DNA of 64,000 bases, from the NCBI GenBank assembly GCA_028711115.1, contig JAQTSV010000001.1, positions 838,032-902,031 on the forward strand, read 5' to 3'. The translations under genes and the position numbers were made by a program. Positions 25,624 to 64,000 of this stretch are shown here, one piece after another (position 1 is the stretch's first letter; each line of letters begins with the position of its first letter). The notes beneath the pieces are model-generated. The model made no database searches. It was not told the DNA's origin and saw nothing but the letters and a program-made list of their open reading frames with translations. Source of the DNA: Candidatus Omnitrophota bacterium (GTDB lineage: Bacteria; Omnitrophota; Gorgyraeia; Velamenicoccales; JABMQK01).

Positions 25624-26823
25624 TTATATAGCAGTATTTCCTAAGATGTAAATATCGGGTTTTTCTCCAATAACTTTTCTATAATATAGCCTGTAGTACA
25701 GAATAATTCTTTTAATGTAATAATATAAATTTTTAAGAATTCCTCTCCATTTCTTTTGTTTAATTTGAATGCTTATAAAGGATATTGATAAGAACTTTTT
25801 TTCATAAACTGACGGCAATAAAATTGCGATTAATGCAATTATGTAATGATGTAGTCCTCTATATTTTTTATATTGATATCCGTAGTATTCTAAACTTTTG
25901 GATAGTAAAAAATCCAAAAGATACTCATCGATAATATTTAACTTTTTTCCCGGATTGCTGTTAATGACTGTTTTAGAAAAACCCTGTTCTTCAGGTTTTG
26001 GGCTGTTAGTTGATAACCTGTCTCCCCACCATCTCAAACCGGCCCATGTACTTTTTCTCAAGCAGGGGTCGTAAGATATCCCAAGCCATTTGCAAATTTG
26101 ATGCATTTTTTTCTCATCTTCCAAATCTTCTAGCCTTAACACCGCAGATTCATTGCCGTATTTTTTTAATTTTGATACTTCATTTACTATTCTTTCCAGG
26201 CTAACAAATACACGCCAAAGATTAAAATCTGTATTTGGTCTGTAGCGGAACCAGTGTTCAACACCTGAAACAAAAGTTGCTTTGAAATCGCGAATCATAG
26301 CTATAATTTTACTTTCAGGAAAATCTTTTAAATACTTATCCAAATCTTCAGAGTGGTGAATGTGATGAAAAAAAAGTTTCTTTTTTTCGATGTTTTGCCC
26401 CAGACAAATCGCATAAGCAATGTATACTGATTGGAGAAAATTCTTTGAACAGATATTTCTTTGTTTGGCTAAATTCACAAGGTGCTTTTTAAATTCAAGG
26501 AGGTCTATATTAACGGATTCGTTCTTTTTTTCTCCCAATCGATCTTTACCTTCAGCATAATCATACTTAGATTTTAACTTATATATAAAATTTCCGATGA
26601 ATTCATCGGCTAGATCTTCGACTTCTATATTGCCACTGTAATTTACGCAATAAGATTTTTCCCAGAAATTATAGAAAAACAAGCTGCCATTAAATACAAA
26701 AACCTCTGGATGAGAATCAAGTAAGCTTTGAAAGAAATCTGTGCCTACGCGGCCAGTTGTTATTAAGGCGCACCACGGTAAAGTTTCGATATGACTGATT
26801 ATCTTAGGATAGTTAATTTCCAT
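25624..26823 (-). CDS. Sulfotransferase-like protein with a hydrophobic C-terminal segment
   Basis: Candidate 5'-PSB loop 'LITTGRVGTDFFQSLLD' and 3'-PB-like 'IAMIRDFKATFVS'. C-terminal segment is 'YIIALIAILLPSV'. A PAPS-synthesis module lies in the same locus. Confidence 0.45.
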   Translation of the reverse strand: MEINYPKIISHIETLPWCALITTGRVGTDFFQSLLDSHPEVFVFNGSLFFYNFWEKSYCVNYSGNIEVEDLADEFIGNFIYKLKSKYDYAEGKDRLGEKKNESVNIDLLEFKKHLVNLAKQRNICSKNFLQSVYIAYAICLGQNIEKKKLFFHHIHHSEDLDKYLKDFPESKIIAMIRDFKATFVSGVEHWFRYRPNTDFNLWRVFVSLERIVNEVSKLKKYGNESAVLRLEDLEDEKKMHQICKWLGISYDPCLRKSTWAGLRWWGDRLSTNSPKPEEQGFSKTVINSNPGKKLNIIDEYLLDFLLSKSLEYYGYQYKKYRGLHHYIIALIAILLPSVYEKKFLSISFISIQIKQKKWRGILKNLYYYIKRIILYYRLYYRKVIGEKPDIYILGNTAI

Positions 26824-43383: not shown

Positions 43384-44472
43384 CTATTCCTTTCTATTGG
43401 TTGGTATTACCGCATGTCTCTTTGTCAGTTTATTAAAATCTTCTTCAAGAATCCCCACGTCATTAATAAATTTATCCATTGCCTTTGGCCTTTTACCATC
43501 AAGTGTTTTAACTAAACGCAGCGCTTCTTTCCTGGTTATCAATCCATCGCGCACATCTTTGCTTGCTTGAAATGTTGTCCTTCCTAAATTGCGTTTAATA
43601 AATTTCTGCCAATCCCTCACTGACTCATACGGACAGTCTACCTTATCCCAGTCAACATAAGTTCCTTCAACTTTATTATGTTTCCATCCCAGTTCTTTGG
43701 TAATAATTTCCACATGTTTTCTTTGATCCCAGGGTTCGTAATTTCCTAGATAAATTGCTTTTAATTTAAAGTTCCCTTCGGGCCAAACCATAGGCAACAA
43801 GTCTGATATTGCATATTCCTTAGGTAAGGCCATTTCCGGTTTGATTCCTGCCTGAAAAACTTTTTGATAATGTTCCTCATCTTGTTCCTCAATGTCTTCA
43901 AGCTTATAAGCACCTTCCGTCTGGTATTCAGCTGTGGGTTCTCCCCATATCTGCAGAGGAATATCCCATTGTTTTGAAATGCGGGCAGGGAACGTACCTA
44001 CTCCGTTGTGACAATGCCAACAAAAATCACCCATTATCCCAGTTGTTTTTTTACAGAGTGCGTTCCGTAAACCGTTACCGATACTAAACCTTAAATGGTC
44101 ACAATCCAAGATCTTGGGAATTTCCATAAGATTCCATTCTGCTTCAGGAGATAAAGTGAAGCTGTGATCGAAAGTAACAACCAGAGGCTTCATTTTATAT
44201 TTCCTTACCATGGCCCAAAGAGTATAAACCGTATCCTTGCCTCCGCTATAACCTACAATGCAATTATATTTATTATTTCTTTTTTTAGCATACCTACGGA
44301 ATTTGTGCAAAATTTTATCCAGAATTTTCTGGCGTTCTTTCCAATTGATTTTATTCTTTTTCTTCATAAATTCACTGCACAGACTACAGACACCATCTTC
44401 ATCAAATGATATACCTGACCATGTTTCCGGCATAACACATTTTGTGCACCTTTTTAATGTATTCTTATTCAT
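43384..44472 (-). CDS. N-acetyl sugar amidotransferase (WbuX/PseA/WbpG family, PP-loop ATPase)
   Basis: N-terminal Zn ribbon 'CTKCVMP...GVCSLC', PP-loop 'VGYSGGKDTVY' and 'FCWHCH'. Confidence 0.75.
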   Translation of the reverse strand: MNKNTLKRCTKCVMPETWSGISFDEDGVCSLCSEFMKKKNKINWKERQKILDKILHKFRRYAKKRNNKYNCIVGYSGGKDTVYTLWAMVRKYKMKPLVVTFDHSFTLSPEAEWNLMEIPKILDCDHLRFSIGNGLRNALCKKTTGIMGDFCWHCHNGVGTFPARISKQWDIPLQIWGEPTAEYQTEGAYKLEDIEEQDEEHYQKVFQAGIKPEMALPKEYAISDLLPMVWPEGNFKLKAIYLGNYEPWDQRKHVEIITKELGWKHNKVEGTYVDWDKVDCPYESVRDWQKFIKRNLGRTTFQASKDVRDGLITRKEALRLVKTLDGKRPKAMDKFINDVGILEEDFNKLTKRHAVIPTNRKE

Positions 44473-50234: not shown

Positions 50235-50961
50235 TGGCTTTCATTCCTTTGTGGCCTAAATGATCTACAATAAAATTCAACCACTCGATGTCTTCTGGCG
50301 TATGTACATCTACAAAACAATTTCGATTATGATAATCCTGGATTATCCCTTTTATTCTTCTTCCTAAATAATTCCATGGTTTTATTCCTTTATCTCTATT
50401 TTGCCAAGAGCTATACCTGAAGCATTCTACTGTATGATCAATTTCGTAAGCTTCGCTGTCTTGACGAGAACCAGAGGCTTTAGATTGTATTTGGGGAAAA
50501 TAAGGGACGAGCTCATTGTTTCTTATCGTCATTAATGCCTCGGGTATATAACCAGTTCTTCTGATAGTGACAACTGAGTCATATTGCAAATTTTCTAAGA
50601 GAAAATTAATGCTTTTATCAAATATATCCGGGTCTCTGAACGGAACAACGCATTGAGGCATCGCTATAATCTCTAAATTGTCATATTTATTCTTGATATA
50701 ATTTATGGCGTGATCTACGGCTTCCATGAATTTTTCATTCTTGGCTAATTCATTGTCCCTGAATATTATTTCTGCGCCAGATTTGCTGCCGATTTCAGCG
50801 GTCTTTTTGCCGTTCGTACTTACGAAAATTTTATCTACAGTTTTGGATTTCTTTCCGTCTTCTATTGTCCATTCAAGCAAAGTTTTATCTTTGATCGTCC
50901 AGATATTTTTACCGGGTAAACCGATACTGCCTTCTTTTGCCATAATCAAGATGATATTCAT
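50227..50961 (-). CDS. Acylneuraminate-cytidylyltransferase-family enzyme (CMP-nonulosonate synthetase), a PseF candidate
   Basis: 'IILIMAKEGSIGLPGKNIW...KTLLEWTIEDGKKSKTVDKIFVSTN...IIFRDNELA'. Confidence 0.65.
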   Translation of the reverse strand: MNIILIMAKEGSIGLPGKNIWTIKDKTLLEWTIEDGKKSKTVDKIFVSTNGKKTAEIGSKSGAEIIFRDNELAKNEKFMEAVDHAINYIKNKYDNLEIIAMPQCVVPFRDPDIFDKSINFLLENLQYDSVVTIRRTGYIPEALMTIRNNELVPYFPQIQSKASGSRQDSEAYEIDHTVECFRYSSWQNRDKGIKPWNYLGRRIKGIIQDYHNRNCFVDVHTPEDIEWLNFIVDHLGHKGMKAND

Positions 50962-52931
50962 TTCTTCCCTTCAGTTGTAAGCGCCATATCAACAAAACTG
51001 AAAAAATTTGATTTATATTCCTTGGGATATCTGTAATCTACCAAATCCTCATTTTTTAACGGATTGTTTTCAAAAATATTAAAAATTCTACGTATTCCCT
51101 GGGCAAGCAACAGCGGATTTGTTAAATAGTACACAGGTTTTTTTGTCATTGTTTGTACATCTTTTGTTTCTTCAATATTAAAATGGTTATACCTTTGCCA
51201 CTTGTCAAATAAAACTACGGGTATTCCATTCTGAAGCGCCTCTTCTATGCAAGTCGAAGAATAACTGACTAGAAGATCAGCAATGGAAAGCATGTCTGAA
51301 AATGGCCCATTATTCAATATCCTCAACCTATTACAAATTGGTAAAGATTTGAGAAAATCCTCTTCGCTAAGGTCACAGGCAGGATGTGGACGTATAATTA
51401 AAAATACATCTTCTAAACTTTTAATGGCATTGACTAGATCAAAAATGGCTGAAATATATTCATCCAAAGTCTCTGTAATATGAAAGCGCATGCCTGTGCG
51501 TAATTTCTGTGTGGTAGCATGAACAATAATCTTCCCAAAGCCTTGTATTCCAAGAATCTCTTTCCTTAACGATTTTCTTATTTTGTCTTTTTTTTCTGAG
51601 TATAGTAATGGTCCACTAAAAATTCGGGGTCTCTTATCACCATAATAATCTAGGAATTTTCCAGCCCATGGCGTCTGAACGGCCACATATTTATAATCGT
51701 TCAGAATAACTCCTGTCCCCAGATGATAATTCTCTATTTTTTCGAATTCATTATTGGGCGGCACATGAGTCCCATGGCTTATGTTTAATGAATAGAAGCC
51801 AAATTGATGGCTAATTTCTCCCATTGCTTGATATATTCCCCTGCTGTACATGGCCATTAAAAGCCTGGGATGCAGTTGTTGCAAGATATTACGTAAAACA
51901 AGGGTTGTATGTTGCAATGAAATAACTTTTGGCTTTAAACCATTTTCTACTTTTTCTGCCAAATAATGGTGGAATGGAATTTTGTCATAAACCAGCAAGT
52001 CTCTTAATTCTGAATTTATTGCGTTTACAAAATTGTCGAATTCTTTCCTGAAATTATTTTGTTGACTAAGATCTCTTTTAAAAATATTCCTAATTAAATC
52101 TAGGTTGATAATTGCATCGAGTAGATTTTCTTTCTTGAGCCTTTTTAAGAAATTTGTCAGTAGTAAATATATTTTAAATATTTCTCTTCTTAGATTAGAC
52201 TCTTCCTCCCAGATCATAATACATCTAACATCGGGATGTTGTTTCTTGATATCCTTTAACAAATTACCCATATTATAAGATGCGGCAGGAACTATAATAG
52301 TTTTTGTGTCCATCTTTTTTCTCAAGGCAAAGAATTTGTACTCTACAAACGCTAAAAACATGGCAACTTGATAAGTAATTCTTGTTGCAATTATATTAAG
52401 AAAATTCGAATGTTTATTTTTTAAAGGTTGTTCATAGAAATTGATTCCGTTAATTTTACAAAAATCTTTTGCTAAAATACCTAAAAATCTTTCCTCGTTT
52501 TGTATAGGGGCTTTCTTAGAATACATATTCTTTTGTTTTTTAGGCAGACAACAATAAAACCCGGCAACAGGGTGTTTGTCTTTAATGCCCTTAAGGATCT
52601 CTATATTGCAAAGGAAATGATTAAGATACATCCGTAGATGGTGAACGCATAGTTCCCTGTATTCTTTTTCTAAATTAAAACCATCCTTTAAATGTAGCTT
52701 TTGCATAAGCCGTGCCGTAAGCTTATCGACAGTTAATATAATCCGATGCTGTGCATTATTGTCCAAATAATCAACTGTACCTTTTGAATCTATGCCTTTA
52801 TTTTTTAGAAAAACACGGATATGCGGATGCAGGCATACAGTTATAGTGTCTTTTGATAAAAATAGACCTTTTCCGTATTTATTCAATAAAATCTTGGCCT
52901 CATCCACAAATTCTAGCAATATTATTTTCAT
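50958..52931 (-). CDS. Large uncharacterised protein with a GT-B/TagF-like C-terminal domain
   Basis: 657 aa. 'LIIRPHPAC' is followed about 42 aa later by 'ADLLVSYSSTCIEEALQNGIPVVLFD'. Confidence 0.3.
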   Translation of the reverse strand: MKIILLEFVDEAKILLNKYGKGLFLSKDTITVCLHPHIRVFLKNKGIDSKGTVDYLDNNAQHRIILTVDKLTARLMQKLHLKDGFNLEKEYRELCVHHLRMYLNHFLCNIEILKGIKDKHPVAGFYCCLPKKQKNMYSKKAPIQNEERFLGILAKDFCKINGINFYEQPLKNKHSNFLNIIATRITYQVAMFLAFVEYKFFALRKKMDTKTIIVPAASYNMGNLLKDIKKQHPDVRCIMIWEEESNLRREIFKIYLLLTNFLKRLKKENLLDAIINLDLIRNIFKRDLSQQNNFRKEFDNFVNAINSELRDLLVYDKIPFHHYLAEKVENGLKPKVISLQHTTLVLRNILQQLHPRLLMAMYSRGIYQAMGEISHQFGFYSLNISHGTHVPPNNEFEKIENYHLGTGVILNDYKYVAVQTPWAGKFLDYYGDKRPRIFSGPLLYSEKKDKIRKSLRKEILGIQGFGKIIVHATTQKLRTGMRFHITETLDEYISAIFDLVNAIKSLEDVFLIIRPHPACDLSEEDFLKSLPICNRLRILNNGPFSDMLSIADLLVSYSSTCIEEALQNGIPVVLFDKWQRYNHFNIEETKDVQTMTKKPVYYLTNPLLLAQGIRRIFNIFENNPLKNEDLVDYRYPKEYKSNFFSFVDMALTTEGKK

Positions 52932-55075
52932 TTATTAGAATCAAATGATGTACAGATAAACTCTGGGGAATAAGCCCCAGAATTCTTAAAAGTATCTTTT
53001 TCTTTTTTTAAATCGACCACCTTGTCGCTTCCCCAGCACGTTCGATATCTATTAATTGCTATTTCCATAGCATCCTGGCCACCCATTCCCTTATCAAATG
53101 CATCCAACAGCCAATTTATAAAATTTCCTATTCTTACCGAAGCATTCCCATCCCTAAAAGCATCAATTTCTTTAAGAATAAAGGAAAAATCTCCTATATT
53201 AGTTTTGTTATGTCTATTGCGGCGAAATTCTCCGATAGCCTGAATCATTTGGCCTAAATCGTCAAAAACAACTCTTCCTATGCCTTTTTTATACAACGGA
53301 TGGTTAACAGAGGATAAAGGATCAAAGGTTATGCCGGGTACGCCAGAAATCAATGCCTCTGTTACGGGAGTACTGGAAACTCCGATACCTATGGCTAAAT
53401 CAGAGGCATAAGCAGCTTCGCAGGGAAAAATGTCACCTTCTAAAACAATACATCTACCGGTAGCAATTGCTTGGTTGAGCAAGCCAACCAACAATGGTAA
53501 TTTGTCTTCGATATTAATGAGTTTCTTGGGCTTAATGATGAGCCCCATAGTTTTATCATCCATAACTTCTTTCAGAAGAAATTTATACATTTTTTCTATT
53601 CCTTTTGTCCAGCCAGGTCTTAAATCAGAACAGTTTTGATCAAAGAAACTAACAATAAATTCAGCACCGCTATCTATAAGTTTGCTTCGATAACGTTTTG
53701 ATTTCTCCTTGCATCTTGTAAAAAAACTATCGTAGGGATAACCCGAATACACCAATCTATCGATAGGATAAAAAATATTATCAAAGAAATTGTCTTTAAA
53801 AAATTGGCCCCAAGAAAAATAAACATCATAAGGTTTTCCCGTATAAACTGTTACAAAATCAAAATTTGACCAATGGGTACCTATATCAATACCTTTTACA
53901 AGTTCGATAGCAATATTGGCCGAACTCATATCTTTCCCCGCCTCATATTGACCGAAATGAACTTTGATATTATAAGTGATAAAAAAAGACTCAAAGAAAT
54001 CAACCGTATTTAAAAGTATGGTTAAATTCTTCCAATACCAAAAATAGATTTTGTCATTCTTGAATAGACAATAAAAAAACAGCCGTAATGTTATGGCCAA
54101 TGTTTTTAAGGATTTTTTCAAATATATAGTGGACGGGAGTCTGTTTAATTCCATTGTTCCAAAAAGATATTTTTTGTTCCCGAGCTTCCACGGCAATAAA
54201 TTAACCCAGGTTATATTATTCTGTTCAATAAACTTTATAATTTCAGCGTTAGGAGAACGTACCGAGTATTTAAAATATAGGATAATTTTACTGGGATTAA
54301 TACCGGAATTAGGATACCAAAAATAATCAGTCTTCTTTTCTAAATTAGCCCCCTGTACGTATAGCACAGCAACTTTTGAATCTTTTGCTGAGTTTTTTGT
54401 AATAATGCTTTTACCAATCAATACCAAGAACAAATTGGCAATTATCTCAATAAAAATCTTAATTGGATAATAAAACATGCTGATGATTTCTTTAAAATTA
54501 AGATATGTATAAAGCCTGATATTGTTGTTTTCGTAATATGAGCGGATATGTGGTATCCAAAAATTATCAGTAACTATTATTAAGTTATACGAATAGGTTA
54601 AATTCTTATTGTTAAGGCAAAACGATTTTACATGGTTGCATAGCTTAACTATATTTTCAATCTCGCGTGAGATCTCTTGTTCAAAAAAGAAAGAAATCTT
54701 TTCTCTGCTGTATCTCGGATTTATATTCTTAAGCAAAGAGCTATATTTATTCGAGGAGCAGATTCTAATCTGTTTATAAATTAAAGAAACAATGTCGTCA
54801 TATGCTTTAATATCGATTTCTTTTTCTTCTTTTGCGGAAATTAAACCTTCTGCTGAAAAAATACATTTCAATTTAAATATGTTGTTATAATATTTTTCGA
54901 TAAATGTCTTTACAAACGGAGCGATTGTCATATATCTTAATTCTACAATTTCATATTTTAGATTTAATCTTCTTAATTTTGAAAATGAAAAAAGAGTTAA
55001 TCTGTCAAACCAGCAGATACATTGTTTTCTAGTTTTCTTATTTTTAAATTTTGTCAATTCTTCTGTACTAAACAT
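52928..55075 (-). CDS. Large uncharacterised protein with a weakly GT-B-like C-terminal region
   Basis: 715 aa. It has a central hydrophobic stretch and 'ASDLAIGIGVSSTPVTEALISGVPGITFD'. The HP motif is absent ('LIIKPKKL'). Confidence 0.25.
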   Translation of the reverse strand: MFSTEELTKFKNKKTRKQCICWFDRLTLFSFSKLRRLNLKYEIVELRYMTIAPFVKTFIEKYYNNIFKLKCIFSAEGLISAKEEKEIDIKAYDDIVSLIYKQIRICSSNKYSSLLKNINPRYSREKISFFFEQEISREIENIVKLCNHVKSFCLNNKNLTYSYNLIIVTDNFWIPHIRSYYENNNIRLYTYLNFKEIISMFYYPIKIFIEIIANLFLVLIGKSIITKNSAKDSKVAVLYVQGANLEKKTDYFWYPNSGINPSKIILYFKYSVRSPNAEIIKFIEQNNITWVNLLPWKLGNKKYLFGTMELNRLPSTIYLKKSLKTLAITLRLFFYCLFKNDKIYFWYWKNLTILLNTVDFFESFFITYNIKVHFGQYEAGKDMSSANIAIELVKGIDIGTHWSNFDFVTVYTGKPYDVYFSWGQFFKDNFFDNIFYPIDRLVYSGYPYDSFFTRCKEKSKRYRSKLIDSGAEFIVSFFDQNCSDLRPGWTKGIEKMYKFLLKEVMDDKTMGLIIKPKKLINIEDKLPLLVGLLNQAIATGRCIVLEGDIFPCEAAYASDLAIGIGVSSTPVTEALISGVPGITFDPLSSVNHPLYKKGIGRVVFDDLGQMIQAIGEFRRNRHNKTNIGDFSFILKEIDAFRDGNASVRIGNFINWLLDAFDKGMGGQDAMEIAINRYRTCWGSDKVVDLKKEKDTFKNSGAYSPEFICTSFDSNK

Positions 55076-55645
55076 TTATATTTCCTTCGTCTTTATAAAA
55101 CTAATAAGTTTTTTTATACAAGTTTTTAAATCATATTTTTCCGTATCTAATACCAAATCCGCATTTTTAGGCATCTGATAGGGTACATTTTTATCAATAC
55201 CGATAAAATTTTCTATCTTTCCGGATAAGGCTTTTTTATACAGCCCCTTGGGGTCTCTTTTAATAACAGTTCCAAGCGAAGCTTTACAATAAATCAAATA
55301 TAGCTGCTCTCCAATTGTGCTTTTTACCTGCTGCCTGGACTCCTCAAACGGAGAAATAACTGTTACAAAAATATAATCATATTTTTTCTTATTGATTTCT
55401 TGTTTACAAATCTCAGCTATTATCCTATTGTTTTTCTTAATGTGTTTTGGTGTAAATTTCAGGTGTCTATTCAGTTTTTGTCTTACAATATCGCCATCAT
55501 AAATTTTGATTTTTTTCTTTATTTTTGAAAGTGATTTCTTAGTTTCATTGGCAATGGTTGTTTTTCCAGAACCAGAAAGACCTGTAAACCAAAAAACTAG
55601 AGTTTTTTTATTCAACAAAGACCTTCCCTCCTTCTTTAATTTCAT
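55076..55645 (-). CDS. cysC: Adenylyl-sulfate (APS) kinase
   Basis: P-loop 'FWFTGLSGSGKTTIA' and 'DGDIVRQKL'. An 'AAGGAGG' followed 7 nt later by TTG at 55618 is an alternative start. Confidence 0.85.
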   Translation of the reverse strand: MKLKKEGRSLLNKKTLVFWFTGLSGSGKTTIANETKKSLSKIKKKIKIYDGDIVRQKLNRHLKFTPKHIKKNNRIIAEICKQEINKKKYDYIFVTVISPFEESRQQVKSTIGEQLYLIYCKASLGTVIKRDPKGLYKKALSGKIENFIGIDKNVPYQMPKNADLVLDTEKYDLKTCIKKLISFIKTKEI

Positions 55646-57788
55646 TTAGAACAAAGTCCGAAACTTCTTTTCTCATAAACCAGTCGGGAGGAGCTTTTTT
55701 AAAACCAAACATTTCTCTCGCATGTGTACCGCTTATCTCTGATATATTTTTATTATTATGTTTGCACTGCTCAACGTATTTACAGCATTTCTTGCAATAA
55801 TGCATTTCATTAAAAAATATCGGGACTATTCCAATATCTCCGAGATAATTGAAAAGCTTATGGGCATCGTCTTGTTTATAGTGGTTACCTACTCCCGTAT
55901 GATCTCTGCCAACAATAAAATGGCTGCATCCGAAATTCTTTCTGCACAAAGCCGTGAATACCGCTTCCCTTGGCCCGGAATATCTTGAATAATTCTGAAA
56001 AGCAGCCAAAAAAACCTTACCTTTAGGATAATACTTTTCTATCATTAGTTCATAGCTTCTCAGGATTACATCTGCCGTATAATCGCCTTTCTTTTTCGGG
56101 CCTATTACAGGATGGATAAAAAGACCGTCGCAGTGATATTTTTCAAAAGCAAGCATTTGAATATATTCATGAACACGATGAGCCACATTTCTTGTATGAA
56201 AACCAACCACCCTGTGCCATCCTTTATTTTCAAAAATTAATCTTGCTTGTCTCGGTGTTATTTCAAAATGTTTATATTTTGAAGGGAGGCGTTCGATTAA
56301 ATCTACTTTTCCGCTGAGAAAATATTCTCCTCTTCTTTTCAATTGCTGAACTCCGTAATGACTTTCATCATTGGTTCTAAAAGTTTCTCTTGCCATTTTA
56401 TCTAAATCGTAAGTATAAATTTCTTCTAAATTCAGTATAGAGAATGCTTTATTAGTGTTTCTCAAAACCAATGCAATTTTATTTCCGGGTTTAAATTTAC
56501 CAATATATTTTCTATCTACTTGTAAGAAAATTGGTAACGGCCAAACAACTCCGTTGGGGAGTTTGTAATTTTTGAGCACAGAATTAATTTCTTCCTTATT
56601 CATAAAACCCTGCAAAGGAGAAAAGGCGCCAATTGCAATCTGTTCAGCATCCAATAAAACAGTTTCATCTACGATTAATGTTTTATATTTATTTATTTCT
56701 TTGATATTTGGTTCCCTGACAACTCTGTTTACAAGAGTACCTCCATGCGGTTCTATTAATACGTATGAATCACTATCTTGTAAATTATCGAGAGAGTGAT
56801 TACGAGAAAAATCGAGGCATTGTTTAATCATCTTAGAAATCATCACTGTACAATTTATAGGATATGCTCCGATTGCGGTTTCAGCAGCAAGTACTAAGCC
56901 ATCTGCGCCATCGAGTAAAGTATTTATAACGTCATTTGCTTCTGCTCTCGTAGGTTTTTTGCTCCTAACCATTGACTCAAGTAAATTTGTAGCCACATAT
57001 ACAGGTATTTTCTTCTTATTTACCTTATTTATAATTAGTTTTTGAATGAGCGGTATTCTTTCTATAGGTTCTTCTCTGGAGAGATCTCCTCTGTCTATAA
57101 GTATAGAATCAGAAACGCTAATTATACCGTCGATATTCTTTACGCCTTCCCTATTTTCTATCTTGGAAATTATGTGAGCATTTTTTCCTAATTGACTACG
57201 GAAATATTCAACACTTTTTCTGTCAGAGGCAAATGACAAAGCAAAATATTGCAGACCGTGTTTTAGCCCGATCTTGATAGCTTCTTTATCTTTTTCAGAA
57301 ATCACTGGTAATTGTATATTTCTATCGACGGTTGCTGCTTTATTGCTTCCAATATAACCGTCAGCAACAACCCTTGCTGTTACGGAATCAAGATTCGTTT
57401 TAATAATTTGCAACAGCACAGATTCAAAGTCGATGCTAATCAAATCGCCAATCCTTAGTTCCCTGACAACAAAATTAGGGGTAAATGAAATCCTGCGAGA
57501 ATTACCGACTATATTTTTCTTTGTTATCTCAATCAAACTGTTTTCTTTTAAATAAACCTTATTATTTTCTACAAATCCGTTACGAATTTGGGCGCCTTCT
57601 GTATCAAGACACAATGGTTTATTCGTAAATCGCTTTATAGATAGTATTAAATTTTCCAAATCTTTTATTTCTGTATGAGAAAGGTTTAAACGAAAGATAT
57701 CCACCCCCAAAGAGTCCAATCTTAAAATAGTTCTTTCATCTATGGAAGAAGGACCAAGTGTACATAATATTTTTATCTTTTTTTTCAT
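55608..57788 (-). CDS. sat: Fusion protein: pyruvate-kinase-like catalytic barrel (about aa 1-335) joined to sulfate adenylyltransferase / ATP sulfurylase (about aa 340-726)
   Basis: PK half: 'KILCTLGPSS', 'FRLNLSHT', 'LDTEGAQIR', 'ISKIENREG', 'IDRGDLS', 'PTRAEANDV' and 'LAAETAIGAYP'. Sulfurylase half: 'EPHGGTLVNR', 'GAFSPLQGFM', 'GFHTRNVAHRVHEY', 'HPVIGPKKKGDY' and 'GPREAVFTALCRKNFGCSHFIVGRDHTGVG'. The frame is continuous. Confidence 0.8.
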   Translation of the reverse strand: MKKKIKILCTLGPSSIDERTILRLDSLGVDIFRLNLSHTEIKDLENLILSIKRFTNKPLCLDTEGAQIRNGFVENNKVYLKENSLIEITKKNIVGNSRRISFTPNFVVRELRIGDLISIDFESVLLQIIKTNLDSVTARVVADGYIGSNKAATVDRNIQLPVISEKDKEAIKIGLKHGLQYFALSFASDRKSVEYFRSQLGKNAHIISKIENREGVKNIDGIISVSDSILIDRGDLSREEPIERIPLIQKLIINKVNKKKIPVYVATNLLESMVRSKKPTRAEANDVINTLLDGADGLVLAAETAIGAYPINCTVMISKMIKQCLDFSRNHSLDNLQDSDSYVLIEPHGGTLVNRVVREPNIKEINKYKTLIVDETVLLDAEQIAIGAFSPLQGFMNKEEINSVLKNYKLPNGVVWPLPIFLQVDRKYIGKFKPGNKIALVLRNTNKAFSILNLEEIYTYDLDKMARETFRTNDESHYGVQQLKRRGEYFLSGKVDLIERLPSKYKHFEITPRQARLIFENKGWHRVVGFHTRNVAHRVHEYIQMLAFEKYHCDGLFIHPVIGPKKKGDYTADVILRSYELMIEKYYPKGKVFLAAFQNYSRYSGPREAVFTALCRKNFGCSHFIVGRDHTGVGNHYKQDDAHKLFNYLGDIGIVPIFFNEMHYCKKCCKYVEQCKHNNKNISEISGTHAREMFGFKKAPPDWFMRKEVSDFVLNEIKEGGKVFVE

Positions 57789-57809: not shown

Positions 57810-58778
57810 TTAAAACAATTTTCCTTTTTCATGAAGCGATGCTAAACGCATCATCAATTTAAACATTTTAGGAGAAGCCATTTTTTTAATGAACAGCATC
57901 TTTTTCTTTCTTTCTAATGGGTCTATTTTTCTATTACAATTTTCCCTGGCGAGAATCGTTGACATCGATTCAGAAGGAATTGTGTTTAAAAATAATCCCG
58001 CCTTCTTTACAACAGCCCATGAATCTTCTATTAAATCTTCATAAGTAACAAACAAAATATTTTTTTTATGTTTAAGCGGAAGAAGGCCGTAAGCATTTTG
58101 TGATATTTCAGTTATGATTTCTATGCTTTTAATTATGCGATCCATTCTTGATAATTTTATATATTCATCACTCCAGTTATATGCATACCAAGGAATAGTC
58201 TTGTTATTTATATTAACACAAGGGGATAAGTAAAGCGGATCGGAAATTTCCCTACCCCCAAAACCTCTAAGATACCAAGAATACATGATATCTATCGGGT
58301 GTCTTATAATATGAATCATTTTGAAATCAGGAAACGATTTAAAGAATATATTTATGCAAGGTAGGACTTCGTGCGTTACAAATACGGATATTCTTTTATC
58401 TTTATTTATTGCCTTAACGGTCTCTTTGCGATCTTTATCTTGGCTAAAAGTTTTTAATAAATACCTTCCGAGATCGGGGTATTTGAATATGGAGGAACCA
58501 TCGTTATAACGAAAGTTTAAATTCCTACCTATTCCTATATTATATACCCATTGGTCTACCATTATCTGCAACAGAGAAATTGCAGTATCTTCCCTAATAG
58601 CTCCTAATTTTTCTAAATAAGGGATTATTTCTATTAAATCAACAGCCTGAAAATGTTCTGTGCTCTTCAACCCGTCAATAATCCGTCCCAGGAAGAACTT
58701 TCCAGAACGAGTAATACCATCTAATATAACTAATTTCTTGACTAAAAGGTTTTTAGTGGCGACTTTAATTTCCTGCAT
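57810..58778 (-). CDS. Sulfotransferase-family protein
   Basis: 5'-PSB-like 'LDGITRSGKFFLGRI' and 3'-PB-like 'IHIIRHPIDIMYSW'. It lies directly upstream of sat and cysC. Confidence 0.55.
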   Translation of the reverse strand: MQEIKVATKNLLVKKLVILDGITRSGKFFLGRIIDGLKSTEHFQAVDLIEIIPYLEKLGAIREDTAISLLQIMVDQWVYNIGIGRNLNFRYNDGSSIFKYPDLGRYLLKTFSQDKDRKETVKAINKDKRISVFVTHEVLPCINIFFKSFPDFKMIHIIRHPIDIMYSWYLRGFGGREISDPLYLSPCVNINNKTIPWYAYNWSDEYIKLSRMDRIIKSIEIITEISQNAYGLLPLKHKKNILFVTYEDLIEDSWAVVKKAGLFLNTIPSESMSTILARENCNRKIDPLERKKKMLFIKKMASPKMFKLMMRLASLHEKGKLF

Positions 58779-60352: not shown

Positions 60353-60464
60353 AGAAGGTTTAAATAAATTTAATACGGCTCGAATTTGAGCTTCCAAATA
60401 CCATTTACTTTCTCAAGAACATCCTTGTTGGCAAATTTATCGAGTACATCATCAAATTCTTTTC
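60352..60464 (-). repeat. Right copy of the 113-nt direct repeat: hisH start codon, 17-nt spacer and the 3' end of the intact amidotransferase gene
   Basis: See 58792-58904. The offset between copies is exactly 1560 nt. Confidence 0.85.
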
Positions 60465-61542
60465 TCGTTATCCGGAAATACTCCACAAATTTACCTATTA
60501 ATTGTTCCGGATATTCCCCATCATACCTTCTGACAAGAGCTAAGGCCTGCTTCCTGTCTAGGGCACCCCTACGCACATCAATGCAGGCATCGGAAGTAGC
60601 CCTACCGAAACCAAATTTCAAAAACATAAGATACACGTGTAAATCCTGCAAATCGTCATCTAACTGCGCGAAGTTTGTATAAGTGCCGATACTTCGTGTT
60701 GGCAGCGTCTGAAAACCGCAATGCTTCTTAGCAAACAGATAATGCTCATACGGATTCCAGTCTTCAAAATACGACCAATAAGCCATAAGCACGCCACTTT
60801 TATCCAATACCTCTTGGCTCGGGAACCTCCACCACTTGACATCATGATCAGAGATTCCCATTTTTCCCACAGCCCTGTCTGATTCACAACCGCTAAAATA
60901 ATAAGTCACCGTTTCCGCCCTGTCCATAAAGTATTTTTTATCAAAATTTCCAGAGCCACCGTATTCTGCCTCTCCCTGTTCGCCGTACATTAAAAAAGGA
61001 ATGTTGAGTTTTATGCTGAATTCAACGACAATCGTAGTAATTCCGGAAATAAAAGGCTCTTTCGGCTGGCCTTCTTCAATCAATCCTACCTTAGCCAACT
61101 TTCTGTATGATTCCGGGTCAGGGCTTACCATGATATGATCAAACCCCGCTTTGATGAAGTTCTCTAAGTTTCGTTTGCCTATTTCTGTGGGCATTTGCGA
61201 CGCAACGGTTATGCATAAAGGATGCATCCCCAATTCGTGTTTCATCTTCCAAGCGACGTAGCTGCTATCTTTGCCGCCGCTACCAGGAACAATAACATCA
61301 AAACTTCCGTCTTTTCTGCGGTATTTATCGCACAGCTTTTCCACTTCATTCCACCGCTTTTTCCAGTCAGTATTCTTTCTTTTGTATTCAGCGTGCAGGC
61401 AGGCATTACATACTCCTTCTGAATTAAATACAATTCGTGGACGAGCGGATGGCGCCAAACAACTTTTACAATAAAACATTTTTCTTTCTTCTTTTTTTAA
61501 AACGATATCTTTACCATCGCCCTGATTATTTAAAGTTTCCAT
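60370..61542 (-). CDS. N-acetyl sugar amidotransferase (WbuX/PseA family, PP-loop)
   Basis: 'CKSCLAP...GVCNAC' Zn ribbon and 'VPGSGGKDSSY'. It lies directly upstream of the hisH/hisF homologues. Confidence 0.8.
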   Translation of the reverse strand: METLNNQGDGKDIVLKKEERKMFYCKSCLAPSARPRIVFNSEGVCNACLHAEYKRKNTDWKKRWNEVEKLCDKYRRKDGSFDVIVPGSGGKDSSYVAWKMKHELGMHPLCITVASQMPTEIGKRNLENFIKAGFDHIMVSPDPESYRKLAKVGLIEEGQPKEPFISGITTIVVEFSIKLNIPFLMYGEQGEAEYGGSGNFDKKYFMDRAETVTYYFSGCESDRAVGKMGISDHDVKWWRFPSQEVLDKSGVLMAYWSYFEDWNPYEHYLFAKKHCGFQTLPTRSIGTYTNFAQLDDDLQDLHVYLMFLKFGFGRATSDACIDVRRGALDRKQALALVRRYDGEYPEQLIGKFVEYFRITRKEFDDVLDKFANKDVLEKVNGIWKLKFEPY

Positions 61543-62970: not shown

Positions 62971-64000
62971 TTATTCTACTTGGTAACGCAGCTTCCACTT
63001 TCCATCAATTTTTTCCCATAAATGAGGTGATTTGAACTTATCGCATAATTCGAAGAACCGTTCTTCTTCCATGCTGATATATCCCATAACTTCTTTAAAA
63101 TATTTCTTAGGAAATTCTCCGTCAAAACGATGTACCAATGAAACCCCCTCTTGTCTGGTTAAATGCTTATTCCTAATCTCTTGTGAAGCATCATAGGAAG
63201 CCCTGCCAAGACCGAATTTAATGTAAGTGGTATAGTAATGTAATCCGTCTATACGGTCATCTAAACTATTATATTTTGAATACGTCCCTTCTGAACGCTC
63301 AGGATTGGCTTGAAATCCGCTATGCTCAACAGAGTAATAATAGGCTTCCTGCGGAGTCCACTTCAAATAATATCCTAAATAATGTACCTCTATTTTTGAA
63401 CGTTCCAAATCTTCAACGCTTGCCGGTAAATAAGTAAGGATATCATTGAGGGTTAAATTATATTTGCCCATAAGCTCCTGGACACAAACACCGGAAAGAT
63501 ATGTTTTTGAAAAATTCTCCATAGTAAAGTATGATTTATTACGTAACGAAGTGACATTATCAGCAATAGGATTTCCGTATTCTGCTTCGTTCTCACCATA
63601 AAAAATTAACGGGATACCGTATTTCGATGCAATCTTTGGTGCTAAGTTTTTCTGACCCAATATAAACGGCTGAAATGGATGGAGCAAATTCTCAATCGCT
63701 AATCTTGTCAGCAGAGCGTGTACCTTTGCATTGTAATTAAATGAAATATTATCGAATCCGCCTTTGTAAATCCAATTGCGGAAGTTTTTCCAGCCGATAT
63801 CAGTATAAATCAGAGGCGGCCAAGTAACTGTTAAAGGATGCATATTGTATTTGTATTTCAGGACATGTGCGGCGTAAACACTATCTTTACCACCACTGCC
63901 AGGGACTATACAATCATAATGCCCGTCATTACGCCGATGTTTATCTAATAGCTGGAGCAATTCTTCTTCTCTTTTTTTCCAGTTTATCTCTTCTTTTTGT
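62971..64000 (-). CDS. N-acetyl sugar amidotransferase paralogue (WbuX/PseA family), with its 5' end beyond the right window edge
   Basis: 'VPGSGGKDSVY'. The track start at 63960 is a TTG. The frame stays open to nt 64000 ('QKEEINWKKREEELLQLLDKHRR' parallels 'TDWKKRWNEVEKLCDKYRR' of the paralogue), and the expected Zn-ribbon N-terminus is missing. Confidence 0.75.
   Translation of the reverse strand, partial: QKEEINWKKREEELLQLLDKHRRNDGHYDCIVPGSGGKDSVYAAHVLKYKYNMHPLTVTWPPLIYTDIGWKNFRNWIYKGGFDNISFNYNAKVHALLTRLAIENLLHPFQPFILGQKNLAPKIASKYGIPLIFYGENEAEYGNPIADNVTSLRNKSYFTMENFSKTYLSGVCVQELMGKYNLTLNDILTYLPASVEDLERSKIEVHYLGYYLKWTPQEAYYYSVEHSGFQANPERSEGTYSKYNSLDDRIDGLHYYTTYIKFGLGRASYDASQEIRNKHLTRQEGVSLVHRFDGEFPKKYFKEVMGYISMEEERFFELCDKFKSPHLWEKIDGKWKLRYQVE

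Follow-up and report, generated by a model that had tools for sequence, protein, structure and literature searches.

Sulfate activation is a textbook uphill reaction that needs a pull, and the known pulls are pyrophosphatase, adenosine 5'-phosphosulfate (APS) kinase, the CysN GTPase and a few eukaryotic fusions. The helpers and fusion partners known for ATP sulfurylase are APS kinase (in both orders), inorganic pyrophosphatase, APS reductase and the CysN GTPase; we know of no 3'-phosphoadenosine 5'-phosphosulfate (PAPS) synthase that carries a pyruvate-kinase (PK) module. Here we describe a gene that joins a PK-like barrel in frame to a Sat-type ATP sulfurylase. It lies in a 64,000-nucleotide stretch of DNA from Candidatus Omnitrophota bacterium (contig JAQTSV010000001.1, positions 838,032 to 902,031), called the window below, and all coordinates refer to this stretch. 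The fusion is a real, widespread and uncharacterised enzyme of bacteria and archaea; it has intact catalytic motifs in both halves and is linked in genomes to PAPS enzymes and sulfotransferases.

PAPS synthases, such as human PAPSS1/2 and the Aquifex aeolicus Sat/APS kinase (2gks), are likewise covalent sulfate-activation enzymes that supply sulfotransferases, and the sulfurylase of 2gks is homologous to that of the window (E 5e-64). Among the relatives of the fusion, P0117, P0208 and P0219 resemble them in having APS kinase on the same chain, whereas the APS kinase of the window is separate. The CysD/CysN system (E. coli, many bacteria, rhizobial NodP/NodQ) also spends a second high-energy compound and is often joined to APS kinase. 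Its fold is unrelated, however: it combines a PAPS-reductase-like CysD with an EF-Tu-like GTPase, while the sulfurylase of the window is of the Sat type. In addition, CysDN couples GTP hydrolysis to APS formation itself; in the fusion, phosphoenolpyruvate (PEP) would enter through ATP regeneration.

Canonical PKs (E. coli PykF, 1pky/4yng; PKM1/2) share the A/B fold of the N-terminal half, at about 33% identity (E about 1e-58). They have a C-domain for allostery and tetramerisation and a role in glycolysis, whereas the module in the window has no C-domain and its genomic role is sulfation. Fusions of sulfurylase with pyrophosphatase and with APS reductase occur in stramenopiles, haptophytes and a dinoflagellate (Patron et al. 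2008, PMC2275785). The logic of these fusions is the same, in that a fused helper removes a product and shifts an unfavourable equilibrium (PMC2275785), but their helpers remove the sulfurylase's own pyrophosphate (PPi) or APS, and a PK would remove ADP one step later. In that survey of sulfurylase fusions, pyruvate kinase has 0 occurrences (PMC2275785). Finally, engineered in vitro PAPS cascades use the set of activities that we propose here, namely sulfurylase, APS kinase and PK with PEP, although as a man-made mix of separate commercial enzymes and not as a natural polypeptide or operon (PMC9885120). By analogy, these three enzymes seem to have been brought together in nature too.

The fusion gene is a single unbroken ATG-to-TAA open reading frame (ORF) of 726 codons in the reverse complement of the window; the plus-strand translation of the same segment is riddled with stops. 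Its parts are as follows.

55608..57788, minus strand: whole fusion gene, 726 codons plus the TAA stop at 55608-55610
56853..57782, minus strand: pyruvate-kinase barrel (A domain with inserted B lid), residues 3-312, PF00224 E 9.8e-71
57294..57581, minus strand: B (lid) subdomain, approximately residues 70-165, aligned to PykF 74-172 and all-beta in the model
56757..56852, minus strand: inter-domain linker, residues 313-344, formed by the end of the last PK helix and a short helix, in place of the PK C-terminal regulatory domain
56289..56756, minus strand: PUA_2, the N-terminal domain of Sat-type ATP sulfurylase, residues 345-500, PF14306 E 1.1e-41 and alignment to 8a8d
55647..56270, minus strand: ATP-sulfurylase catalytic domain, residues 507-714, PF01747 E 2.9e-74

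A first-pass annotation, made by reading the sequence alone, had proposed PK and sulfurylase in one 726-aa frame without stating the strand. The Pfam borders listed above (3-312, 345-500 and 507-714) and the unbroken minus-strand frame agree with it, and every motif that it named (LDTEGAQIR, ISKIENREG, RGDLS, TRAE, AAETA, HTRNVAHRVH, GRDHTG) is present. A break near 56770-56800, which it had considered, does not exist: the spot falls within the 32-residue linker (56757-56852), which contains no stop and no frameshift. The stretch across this linker, between residues 310 and 347, measures 36 aa in 85 of the 120 homologues. The AlphaFold model, which we used for secondary structure and for the predicted local distance difference test (pLDDT), has a pLDDT of 89.9 and a predicted template-modelling score (pTM) of 0.70, with the linker as its least confident part. 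GC content around the gene stays between 0.31 and 0.38, without a break in composition. The identical 726-aa protein is found on three Candidatus Omnitrophota contigs, the longest of 1.57 Mb, under the NCBI accessions MDD5005743.1, MDD5352409.1 and MDD5550007.1. NCBI labels it only 'sulfate adenylyltransferase [Candidatus Omnitrophota bacterium]'; some relatives go by 'pyruvate kinase' at JGI.

The PK-like half is complete as a catalytic core. The PF00224 match spans profile positions 2-326 of 328, and Foldseek superposes PK structures with a root-mean-square deviation of 2.2-3.5 Å over about 342 columns. PK_C (PF02887), the domain that holds the effector site and the tetramer interface, has no Pfam match: the PK match stops at residue 312 and PUA_2 begins at 345. 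Both Pfam and the alignment with PykF thus bear out the earlier description of an A/B core without its C-terminal regulatory domain. The full-length PK equivalog model TIGR01064 scores 273.5 bits, under its cut-off of 306.4, as is expected with the C-domain missing; all other NCBIfam PK models fall below their cut-offs likewise.

In the alignment, PykF R32, N34, S36, H37, D66, T67 and R73 correspond to R33, N35, S37, H38, D62, T63 and R69, and PykF K156, K220, E222, G245, D246, T278 and E314 to K150, K209, E211, G234, D235, T267 and E303. Combined with the residue roles that we take to be established in PK enzymology, this gives the following assignments.

R33, K209: PEP phosphate
E211, D235: Mg2+
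N35, S37, D62, T63: K+
T267, E303: enolate protonation
R69, K150, N35, H38: nucleotide phosphates

These aligned ligand residues are invariant or nearly so across 120 fusion homologues; the catalytic lysine, arginine and metal ligands, whose loss would have spoken against the first-pass reading, are all present and invariant. The B lid, which holds K150 (R69 sits at the A/B hinge, one residue before the lid), is the least conserved catalytic part, with a mean pairwise identity of 0.42 among the 120 homologues. For the PK A domain the same measure is 0.60-0.63, against 0.65 for the sulfurylase domain. Such conservation, on a par with that of the sulfurylase, argues for a working active site and not a relic.

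The second shell of the pocket is different. We searched the PK half exhaustively with HMMER against 1.84 billion representatives and compared the hits column by column. A fixed second-shell signature is common to 135 of the top 150 representatives.

PykF Lys68 / PKM2 Lys115: Glu64
PykF Pro70: Ala66
PykF Glu71 / PKM2 Glu118: Gln67
PykF Ala243 / PKM2 Ala293: Asp232 (invariant)
PykF Gly248 / PKM2 Gly298: Ser237
PykF Gln279 / PKM2 Gln329: Asn268
PykF Ser312-Gly313 / PKM2 Ser362-Gly363: Ala301-Ala302
PykF Lys317 / PKM2 Lys367: Ile306

The 10 canonical PKs in the same top-150 list do not have this signature and keep A, G, Q and S-G/A at the positions of PykF Ala243, Gly248, Gln279 and Ser312-Gly313. 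Docking on PKM2 places Ala293, Gly298, Gln329, Ser362 and Lys367 among the residues that line the PEP/ADP pocket (PMC11207066). In the model, Asp232 directly follows the barrel strand 228-231, three residues ahead of the Mg2+ ligand Asp235. Judged from its sequence, the PK-like domain is a distinct subfamily, with the direct ligands kept and the second shell remodelled. It would act as a PK core but is best kept apart from ordinary pyruvate kinases, since C-domain, equivalog score and pocket lining all fail to match them.

The sulfurylase half is recognised by curated models of sulfate adenylyltransferase (NF003166, 422.5 against a cut-off of 387; TIGR00339, 358.1 against 322.95) and by Foldseek, with a TM-score of 0.93 to both 8a8d and 1v47. 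Among solved structures, the nearest to it is that of the Methanothermococcus thermolithotrophicus enzyme (8a8d), at 42% identity. The full ATP sulfurylase that the first-pass annotation had placed after the PK core is thus supported by Pfam, NCBIfam and Foldseek alike, with two motif variants. Searches of the PDB by sequence and by structure returned no entry that spans both halves. Only Sat-type models match the fusion: no CysD/CysN subunit is detected, and NF004035 (CysN/CysC) matches only the APS-kinase part of the neighbouring gene. Nor does Pfam find an APS_kinase domain in the fusion protein of the window, where cysC is a separate, overlapping gene.

The sulfurylase motifs are FHTRNVAHRVHE with its HxxH, HPxxGxxKxGD, GPREAVFTAL and GRDHTG; H537, H540, R533-N534, H559-P560, K565, D569 and GRDHTG are invariant in the homologues. 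The two variants concern QTRN, which reads HTRN through an invariant His531 in place of Gln (window 56194-56196), and PREAxxH, which reads PREAVFT through an invariant Thr612 in place of His (window 55951-55953). An unfused Sat-CysC protein encoded beside a stand-alone PK-like gene (L087, 3994-5565) keeps the canonical residues at both positions. The confinement of His531 and Thr612 to fused proteins suggests that the two halves have co-adapted. In addition, C665, C668, C675 and H677 are invariant and align with the Cys-x2-Cys...Cys-x-His of the Thermus (1v47) and M. thermolithotrophicus (8a8d) enzymes.

The fusion is not peculiar to the window. The best 120 homologue clusters all have the same three Pfam domains, at 52-68% identity and about 725 aa. 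Scanning GTDB with one genome per species gave 480 relatives as pattern-plus-tblastn matches; we inspected the best 80, and each of them covers the whole fusion (query residues about 1-726, 44-63% identity). They come from Omnitrophota, Nitrospinota, Planctomycetota, Elusimicrobia, Chloroflexi, Actinobacteria, Verrucomicrobia and many Alphaproteobacteria, and on the archaeal side from DPANN archaea and metagenome-assembled genomes labelled Methanosarcinales. Isolates among these 80 are the methylotroph Methyloversatilis universalis FAM5, several Mesorhizobium species (once with the gene on a 410-kb plasmid) and Sinorhizobium saheli. Megaplasmids of Ensifer adhaerens and Sinorhizobium chiapasense carry the fusion as well. 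The architecture is therefore common, with full-length copies in at least 80 species genomes, as the first-pass annotation had allowed; that it might also be already characterised did not hold for the literature, the PDB or NCBIfam. No description, structure or dedicated family model of the fusion was found in the literature searched, the PDB and NCBIfam. The literature searches gave only papers in which PK serves as a coupled-assay reagent, and the papers on sulfur metabolism of Nitrospinota and of anaerobic methanotrophic archaea (ANME) do not mention the fusion.

One related metagenome contig (L084, 5468-8208) has the two halves in separate frames and was considered as a natural split of PK and Sat. 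We rejected it: the first ORF reaches the PUA_2 motif PHGGELV, and the adjoining cysC is full of stops. By its sequence it is a damaged copy of the fusion, with both genes either pseudogenes or poorly assembled, and not an ancestral split.

The genes that adjoin the fusion in the window, and a second sulfotransferase-like gene 30 kb away, are these.

55076..55645, minus strand: cysC (APS kinase), APS_kinase E 6.8e-42; TIGR00455 158.6 against 138.7
55627..55633, minus strand: Shine-Dalgarno sequence AAGGAGG for cysC, inside the last codons of the fusion gene
57810..58778, minus strand: Sulfotransfer_1 sulfotransferase, Pfam E 4.1e-15, ending 21 nt upstream of the fusion ATG
25624..26823, minus strand: second sulfotransferase-like gene, 30 kb from the fusion, matched in hmmsearch by the cluster c15 profile, E 1.2e-83

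The longest ORF of cysC begins at the ATG at 55645 and overlaps the 3' end of the fusion gene; the more likely start is a TTG at 55618 or 55615, 8-11 nt after the Shine-Dalgarno sequence. With either start the gene overlaps the end of the fusion, which implies translational coupling and goes one step beyond the adjacency already noted in the first pass. The upstream sulfotransferase, a probable PAPS consumer, has orthologues in the corresponding place of three further fusion loci (L004, L063 and L070; cluster c47 profile, E 3.3e-101). The c15 cluster, to which the distant gene is matched, consists of sulfotransferases located beside fusions in other genomes.

To describe the surroundings of the fusion elsewhere, the ORFs of 80 loci were clustered and the recurrent neighbours annotated, with counts given for 78 fusion loci. 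In 32 of these the fusion directly adjoins an APS kinase gene, and in 35 a recognisable sulfotransferase lies at most two genes away. Where at least 5 kb is available on both sides, APS kinase and/or a sulfotransferase is present in 37 of 47 loci. All these counts are lower bounds, because in some rhizobial loci of high GC the greedy ORF picking chose a false antisense ORF (c60) in place of cysC. Other recurrent neighbours belong to glycan synthesis, namely epimerases/dehydratases, DegT aminotransferases, NeuB, ABC exporters, Wzy-like proteins and glycosyltransferases; TauE-type permeases recur too.

The PK-like module also occurs in other architectures. A full sulfurylase half follows it in 60 of the top 150 representatives (50% identity level). 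PK, Sat and APS kinase share one chain in P0117, P0208, P0219 and P0230. P0159 and P0218 join PK straight to APS kinase, and the 3-6 kb around them contain no sulfurylase; these proteins lie inside glycan clusters (loci L091-L093, L091 also with a sulfotransferase), and P0218 occurs on two independent contigs. As a stand-alone gene of about 335 aa, the module ends 3 nt before cysC (L082, L083); elsewhere a stand-alone copy is found two genes downstream of cysC (L089, L090) or two genes upstream of the Sat-CysC gene (L087). An N-terminal type I phosphodiesterase/nucleotide pyrophosphatase domain is fused to it in P0255 and P0257 (L086): P0255 reads phosphodiesterase-PK-Sat, and the next gene in L086 encodes a PHP-family phosphoesterase, possibly a phosphatase for 3'-phosphoadenosine 5'-phosphate (pAp). 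P0126 fuses a CBS domain to a module with the Asp232 signature, and two further loci (L085, L088) are too short to inform. The fusions to APS kinase, with or without Sat, and the separate genes next to cysC are all located in clusters for glycans or sulfotransferases. Because of these Rosetta-stone fusions and gene pairings with PAPS enzymes, we read the module as a third component devoted to PAPS synthesis. It is paired most constantly with APS kinase, the enzyme that produces ADP, as an ADP-recycling model predicts.

PEP-driven recycling of ADP to ATP during PAPS synthesis for glycan sulfation is, in our view, the best explanation of the fusion and a moderately probable one. From sequence we infer PEP and ADP as substrates of the PK-like domain, ADP removal with ATP regeneration as its purpose, and a glycan as the sulfated end product. 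The C-terminal Sat would convert ATP and sulfate to APS and PPi; the translationally coupled CysC would turn APS into PAPS and release ADP; and the N-terminal PK-like domain, without an allosteric C-domain, would use PEP to turn this ADP back into ATP in place. Overall, the reaction would read ATP + PEP + sulfate -> PAPS + PPi + pyruvate. By removing ADP, the PK-like domain would prevent a dead-end CysC-ADP-APS complex and keep ATP saturating for both steps, a benefit as much kinetic as thermodynamic. PAPS would then feed the adjacent sulfotransferase or sulfotransferases, whose target would be the sugar polymer made by the surrounding 64-kb cluster. In the engineered cascade, PAPS from PAPSS1 is practically absent unless a PK/PEP regeneration module is added, and PK is needed there to avoid an enzyme-ADP-APS dead-end complex (PMC9885120). 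ADP also occupies the site of yeast sulfurylase almost exactly like APS (PMC3734648).

Several points weigh against this explanation. Without some form of gating, a PK that lacks regulation would drain PEP. In about half of the fusion loci, cysC is missing from the surrounding 8 kb, in part an artefact of ORF picking in high-GC rhizobia. The substitutions fixed in the pocket lining mean that substrate preference could have shifted. One position tells K+-dependent PKs (Glu) from K+-independent ones (Lys) (PMC8835810); the residue here is Gln, which matches neither of the two classes. Finally, a PK removes neither sulfurylase product and cannot replace pyrophosphatase. As it acts on neither APS nor PPi, it has no direct pull on the sulfurylase step; any pull would come through the ADP-producing CysC step and possibly also from relief of ADP binding. 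The first-pass idea of a fused PEP-dependent regenerator as a new way to drive sulfate adenylylation therefore stands in part: the regenerator is supported by the PK-APS kinase fusions and by PK genes beside cysC without a nearby sulfurylase, while the direct pull on the sulfurylase has to be given up.

It is possible, though unlikely, that the PK-like domain still catalyses a reaction but has given up PEP:ADP phosphotransfer for another donor or acceptor of the sulfate pathway. Examples would be a nucleotide related to AMP, PAP (the pAp named above) or APS, an alpha-hydroxy acid phosphorylated with ATP, or sulfuryl transfer. The signature residues D232, S237, N268, A301-A302, I306, E64 and Q67 are strictly conserved and absent from the canonical PKs in the search, and D232 is placed in the model where TIM-barrel active-site residues sit. 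The sulfurylase half carries fused-form changes of its own, HTRN and PREAVFT, which the unfused Sat-CysC of L087 lacks. Rabbit PK has glycolate, fluoride and hydroxylamine kinase side activities, and in 1989 Peliska and O'Leary reportedly observed it moving a sulfuryl group from synthetic sulfoenolpyruvate to ADP. Yet the direct ligands of PEP (R33, K209, the backbone of G234 and D235, T267) are kept, and so are those of Mg2+, K+ and the nucleotide phosphates (R69, K150, N35, H38). No neighbour hints at an alternative substrate, and the simplest chemistry already suits the pairing with APS kinase.

In a more far-reaching form, which we regard as quite unlikely, the D232 family would be an unrecognised third catalytic component of prokaryotic PAPS synthesis with a new specificity or chemistry at the PK site. 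The possibilities include a sulfate-pathway nucleotide as substrate (APS is isosteric with ADP), a second metal held by Asp232, and a non-phosphate group transferred from an enol donor. If this were true, sulfate activation in these organisms would proceed by a route outside the textbooks.

We think it very unlikely that the PK-like domain is a non-catalytic regulator or scaffold that senses PEP or ADP or oligomerises the sulfurylase. There is a precedent in fungal ATP sulfurylase, whose APS-kinase-like C-terminal domain is regulatory and not catalytic (PMC2275785); the loss of the PK C-domain fits such a role, and the conserved linker length suggests a fixed geometry between the domains. However, the residues of catalysis (K209, T267, E303) and the Mg2+ ligands E211 and D235 are invariant in the 120 sequences, which span many phyla. 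Moreover, the module is also found free-standing or fused to APS kinase without sulfurylase, which is hard to square with regulation of a sulfurylase.

The plain database names, 'sulfate adenylyltransferase' at NCBI and 'pyruvate kinase' at JGI for some relatives, would suit an ordinary glycolytic PK joined to an assimilatory ATP sulfurylase with no special link to sulfation. This is highly improbable. Sulfotransferases, APS kinase and glycan-synthesis genes adjoin the fusion in the window and in most of the 78 other loci, whereas no sulfate-reduction enzyme (PAPS/APS reductase or sulfite reductase) is among the annotated recurrent neighbour families. The allosteric C-domain expected of a flux-controlling PK is absent. 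The fusion occurs, sometimes on plasmids, in Mesorhizobium, Sinorhizobium, Ensifer and Methyloversatilis, which presumably have canonical pyk and cysDN.

A chimera or missed frameshift from assembly or sequencing might be suspected of having joined two genes into the single frame, since the genome is metagenome-assembled and a relative (L084) has its halves in separate frames. Such an artefact is excluded for practical purposes by the identical protein under three accessions on three contigs, by the same continuous architecture in the best 120 homologue clusters and in 80 genomes, isolates included, and by the stretch across the linker (36 aa in 85 of 120).

Two sets of recurrent genes near the fusion deserve mention. 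In L028, L036, L062 and L064, a large protein with the N-terminal ATP-grasp domain of pyruvate, phosphate dikinase (PPDK) and the mobile His domain of PEP-utilizers, but without a PEP/pyruvate barrel of its own, is encoded 1-3 genes upstream of the fusion, and recurs with a GATase gene and an NTP_transf_3 gene. It is tempting to ask whether this PPDK-like protein works with the PK-like barrel. In Mesorhizobium and Sinorhizobium (L045, L054, L056, L061, L069, L073 and L077, one of them on a plasmid), the fusion belongs to a conserved block made of a Wzy_C-like gene, two genes without a Pfam match, the fusion, cysC, a transporter of the Na+/H+-exchanger family, a PqqD-plus-STAND ATPase and NTP_transf_5. 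The sulfated product of these rhizobia may not be an ordinary polysaccharide.

The window as a whole (1-64000) looks like one co-directional array for glycan biosynthesis. All 58 of its 58 ORFs of at least 150 aa are on the minus strand and none is on the plus strand; spacing between genes is very short or overlapping wherever coordinates are listed, and no tRNA genes or Rfam matches were found in the window. Members of the array include a PseB-like Polysacc_synt_2 protein, DegT, two CTP_transf_3 cytidylyltransferases, a HisH/HisF-like pair, a B12-radical SAM enzyme, a HAD hydrolase and an aldo-keto reductase. Three paralogues on the minus strand (43384-44472, 60370-61542 and 62971-63960) combine a PP-loop motif SGGKDS/T with N-terminal Cys pairs; a Pfam scan of 60370-61542 gave no match, and one of the three adjoins the HisH/HisF-like pair. 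All three may be enzymes of the sugar amidotransferase type. Immediately after cysC, its tight run of genes continues with two minus-strand ORFs at 52928-55075 and 50958-52931, which encode proteins of 715 and 657 aa, the former without a Pfam match and the latter with weak matches to Epimerase_2/DUF6716 only. Both might be new transferases, glycosyl or other, for the sulfated product.

For metagenome annotators, the fusion would serve as a marker that tells sulfation clusters from assimilation clusters. In biotechnology it would offer a ready-made, self-regenerating PAPS synthase, notably in the form of the PK-Sat-CysC triple fusions. If PEP-driven ADP recycling is true, a natural ATP regenerator would be a further coupling strategy for sulfate activation, assembled from known enzyme folds, and would explain how APS kinase is kept out of its ADP-APS dead end during a large output of PAPS for sulfated surface glycans.

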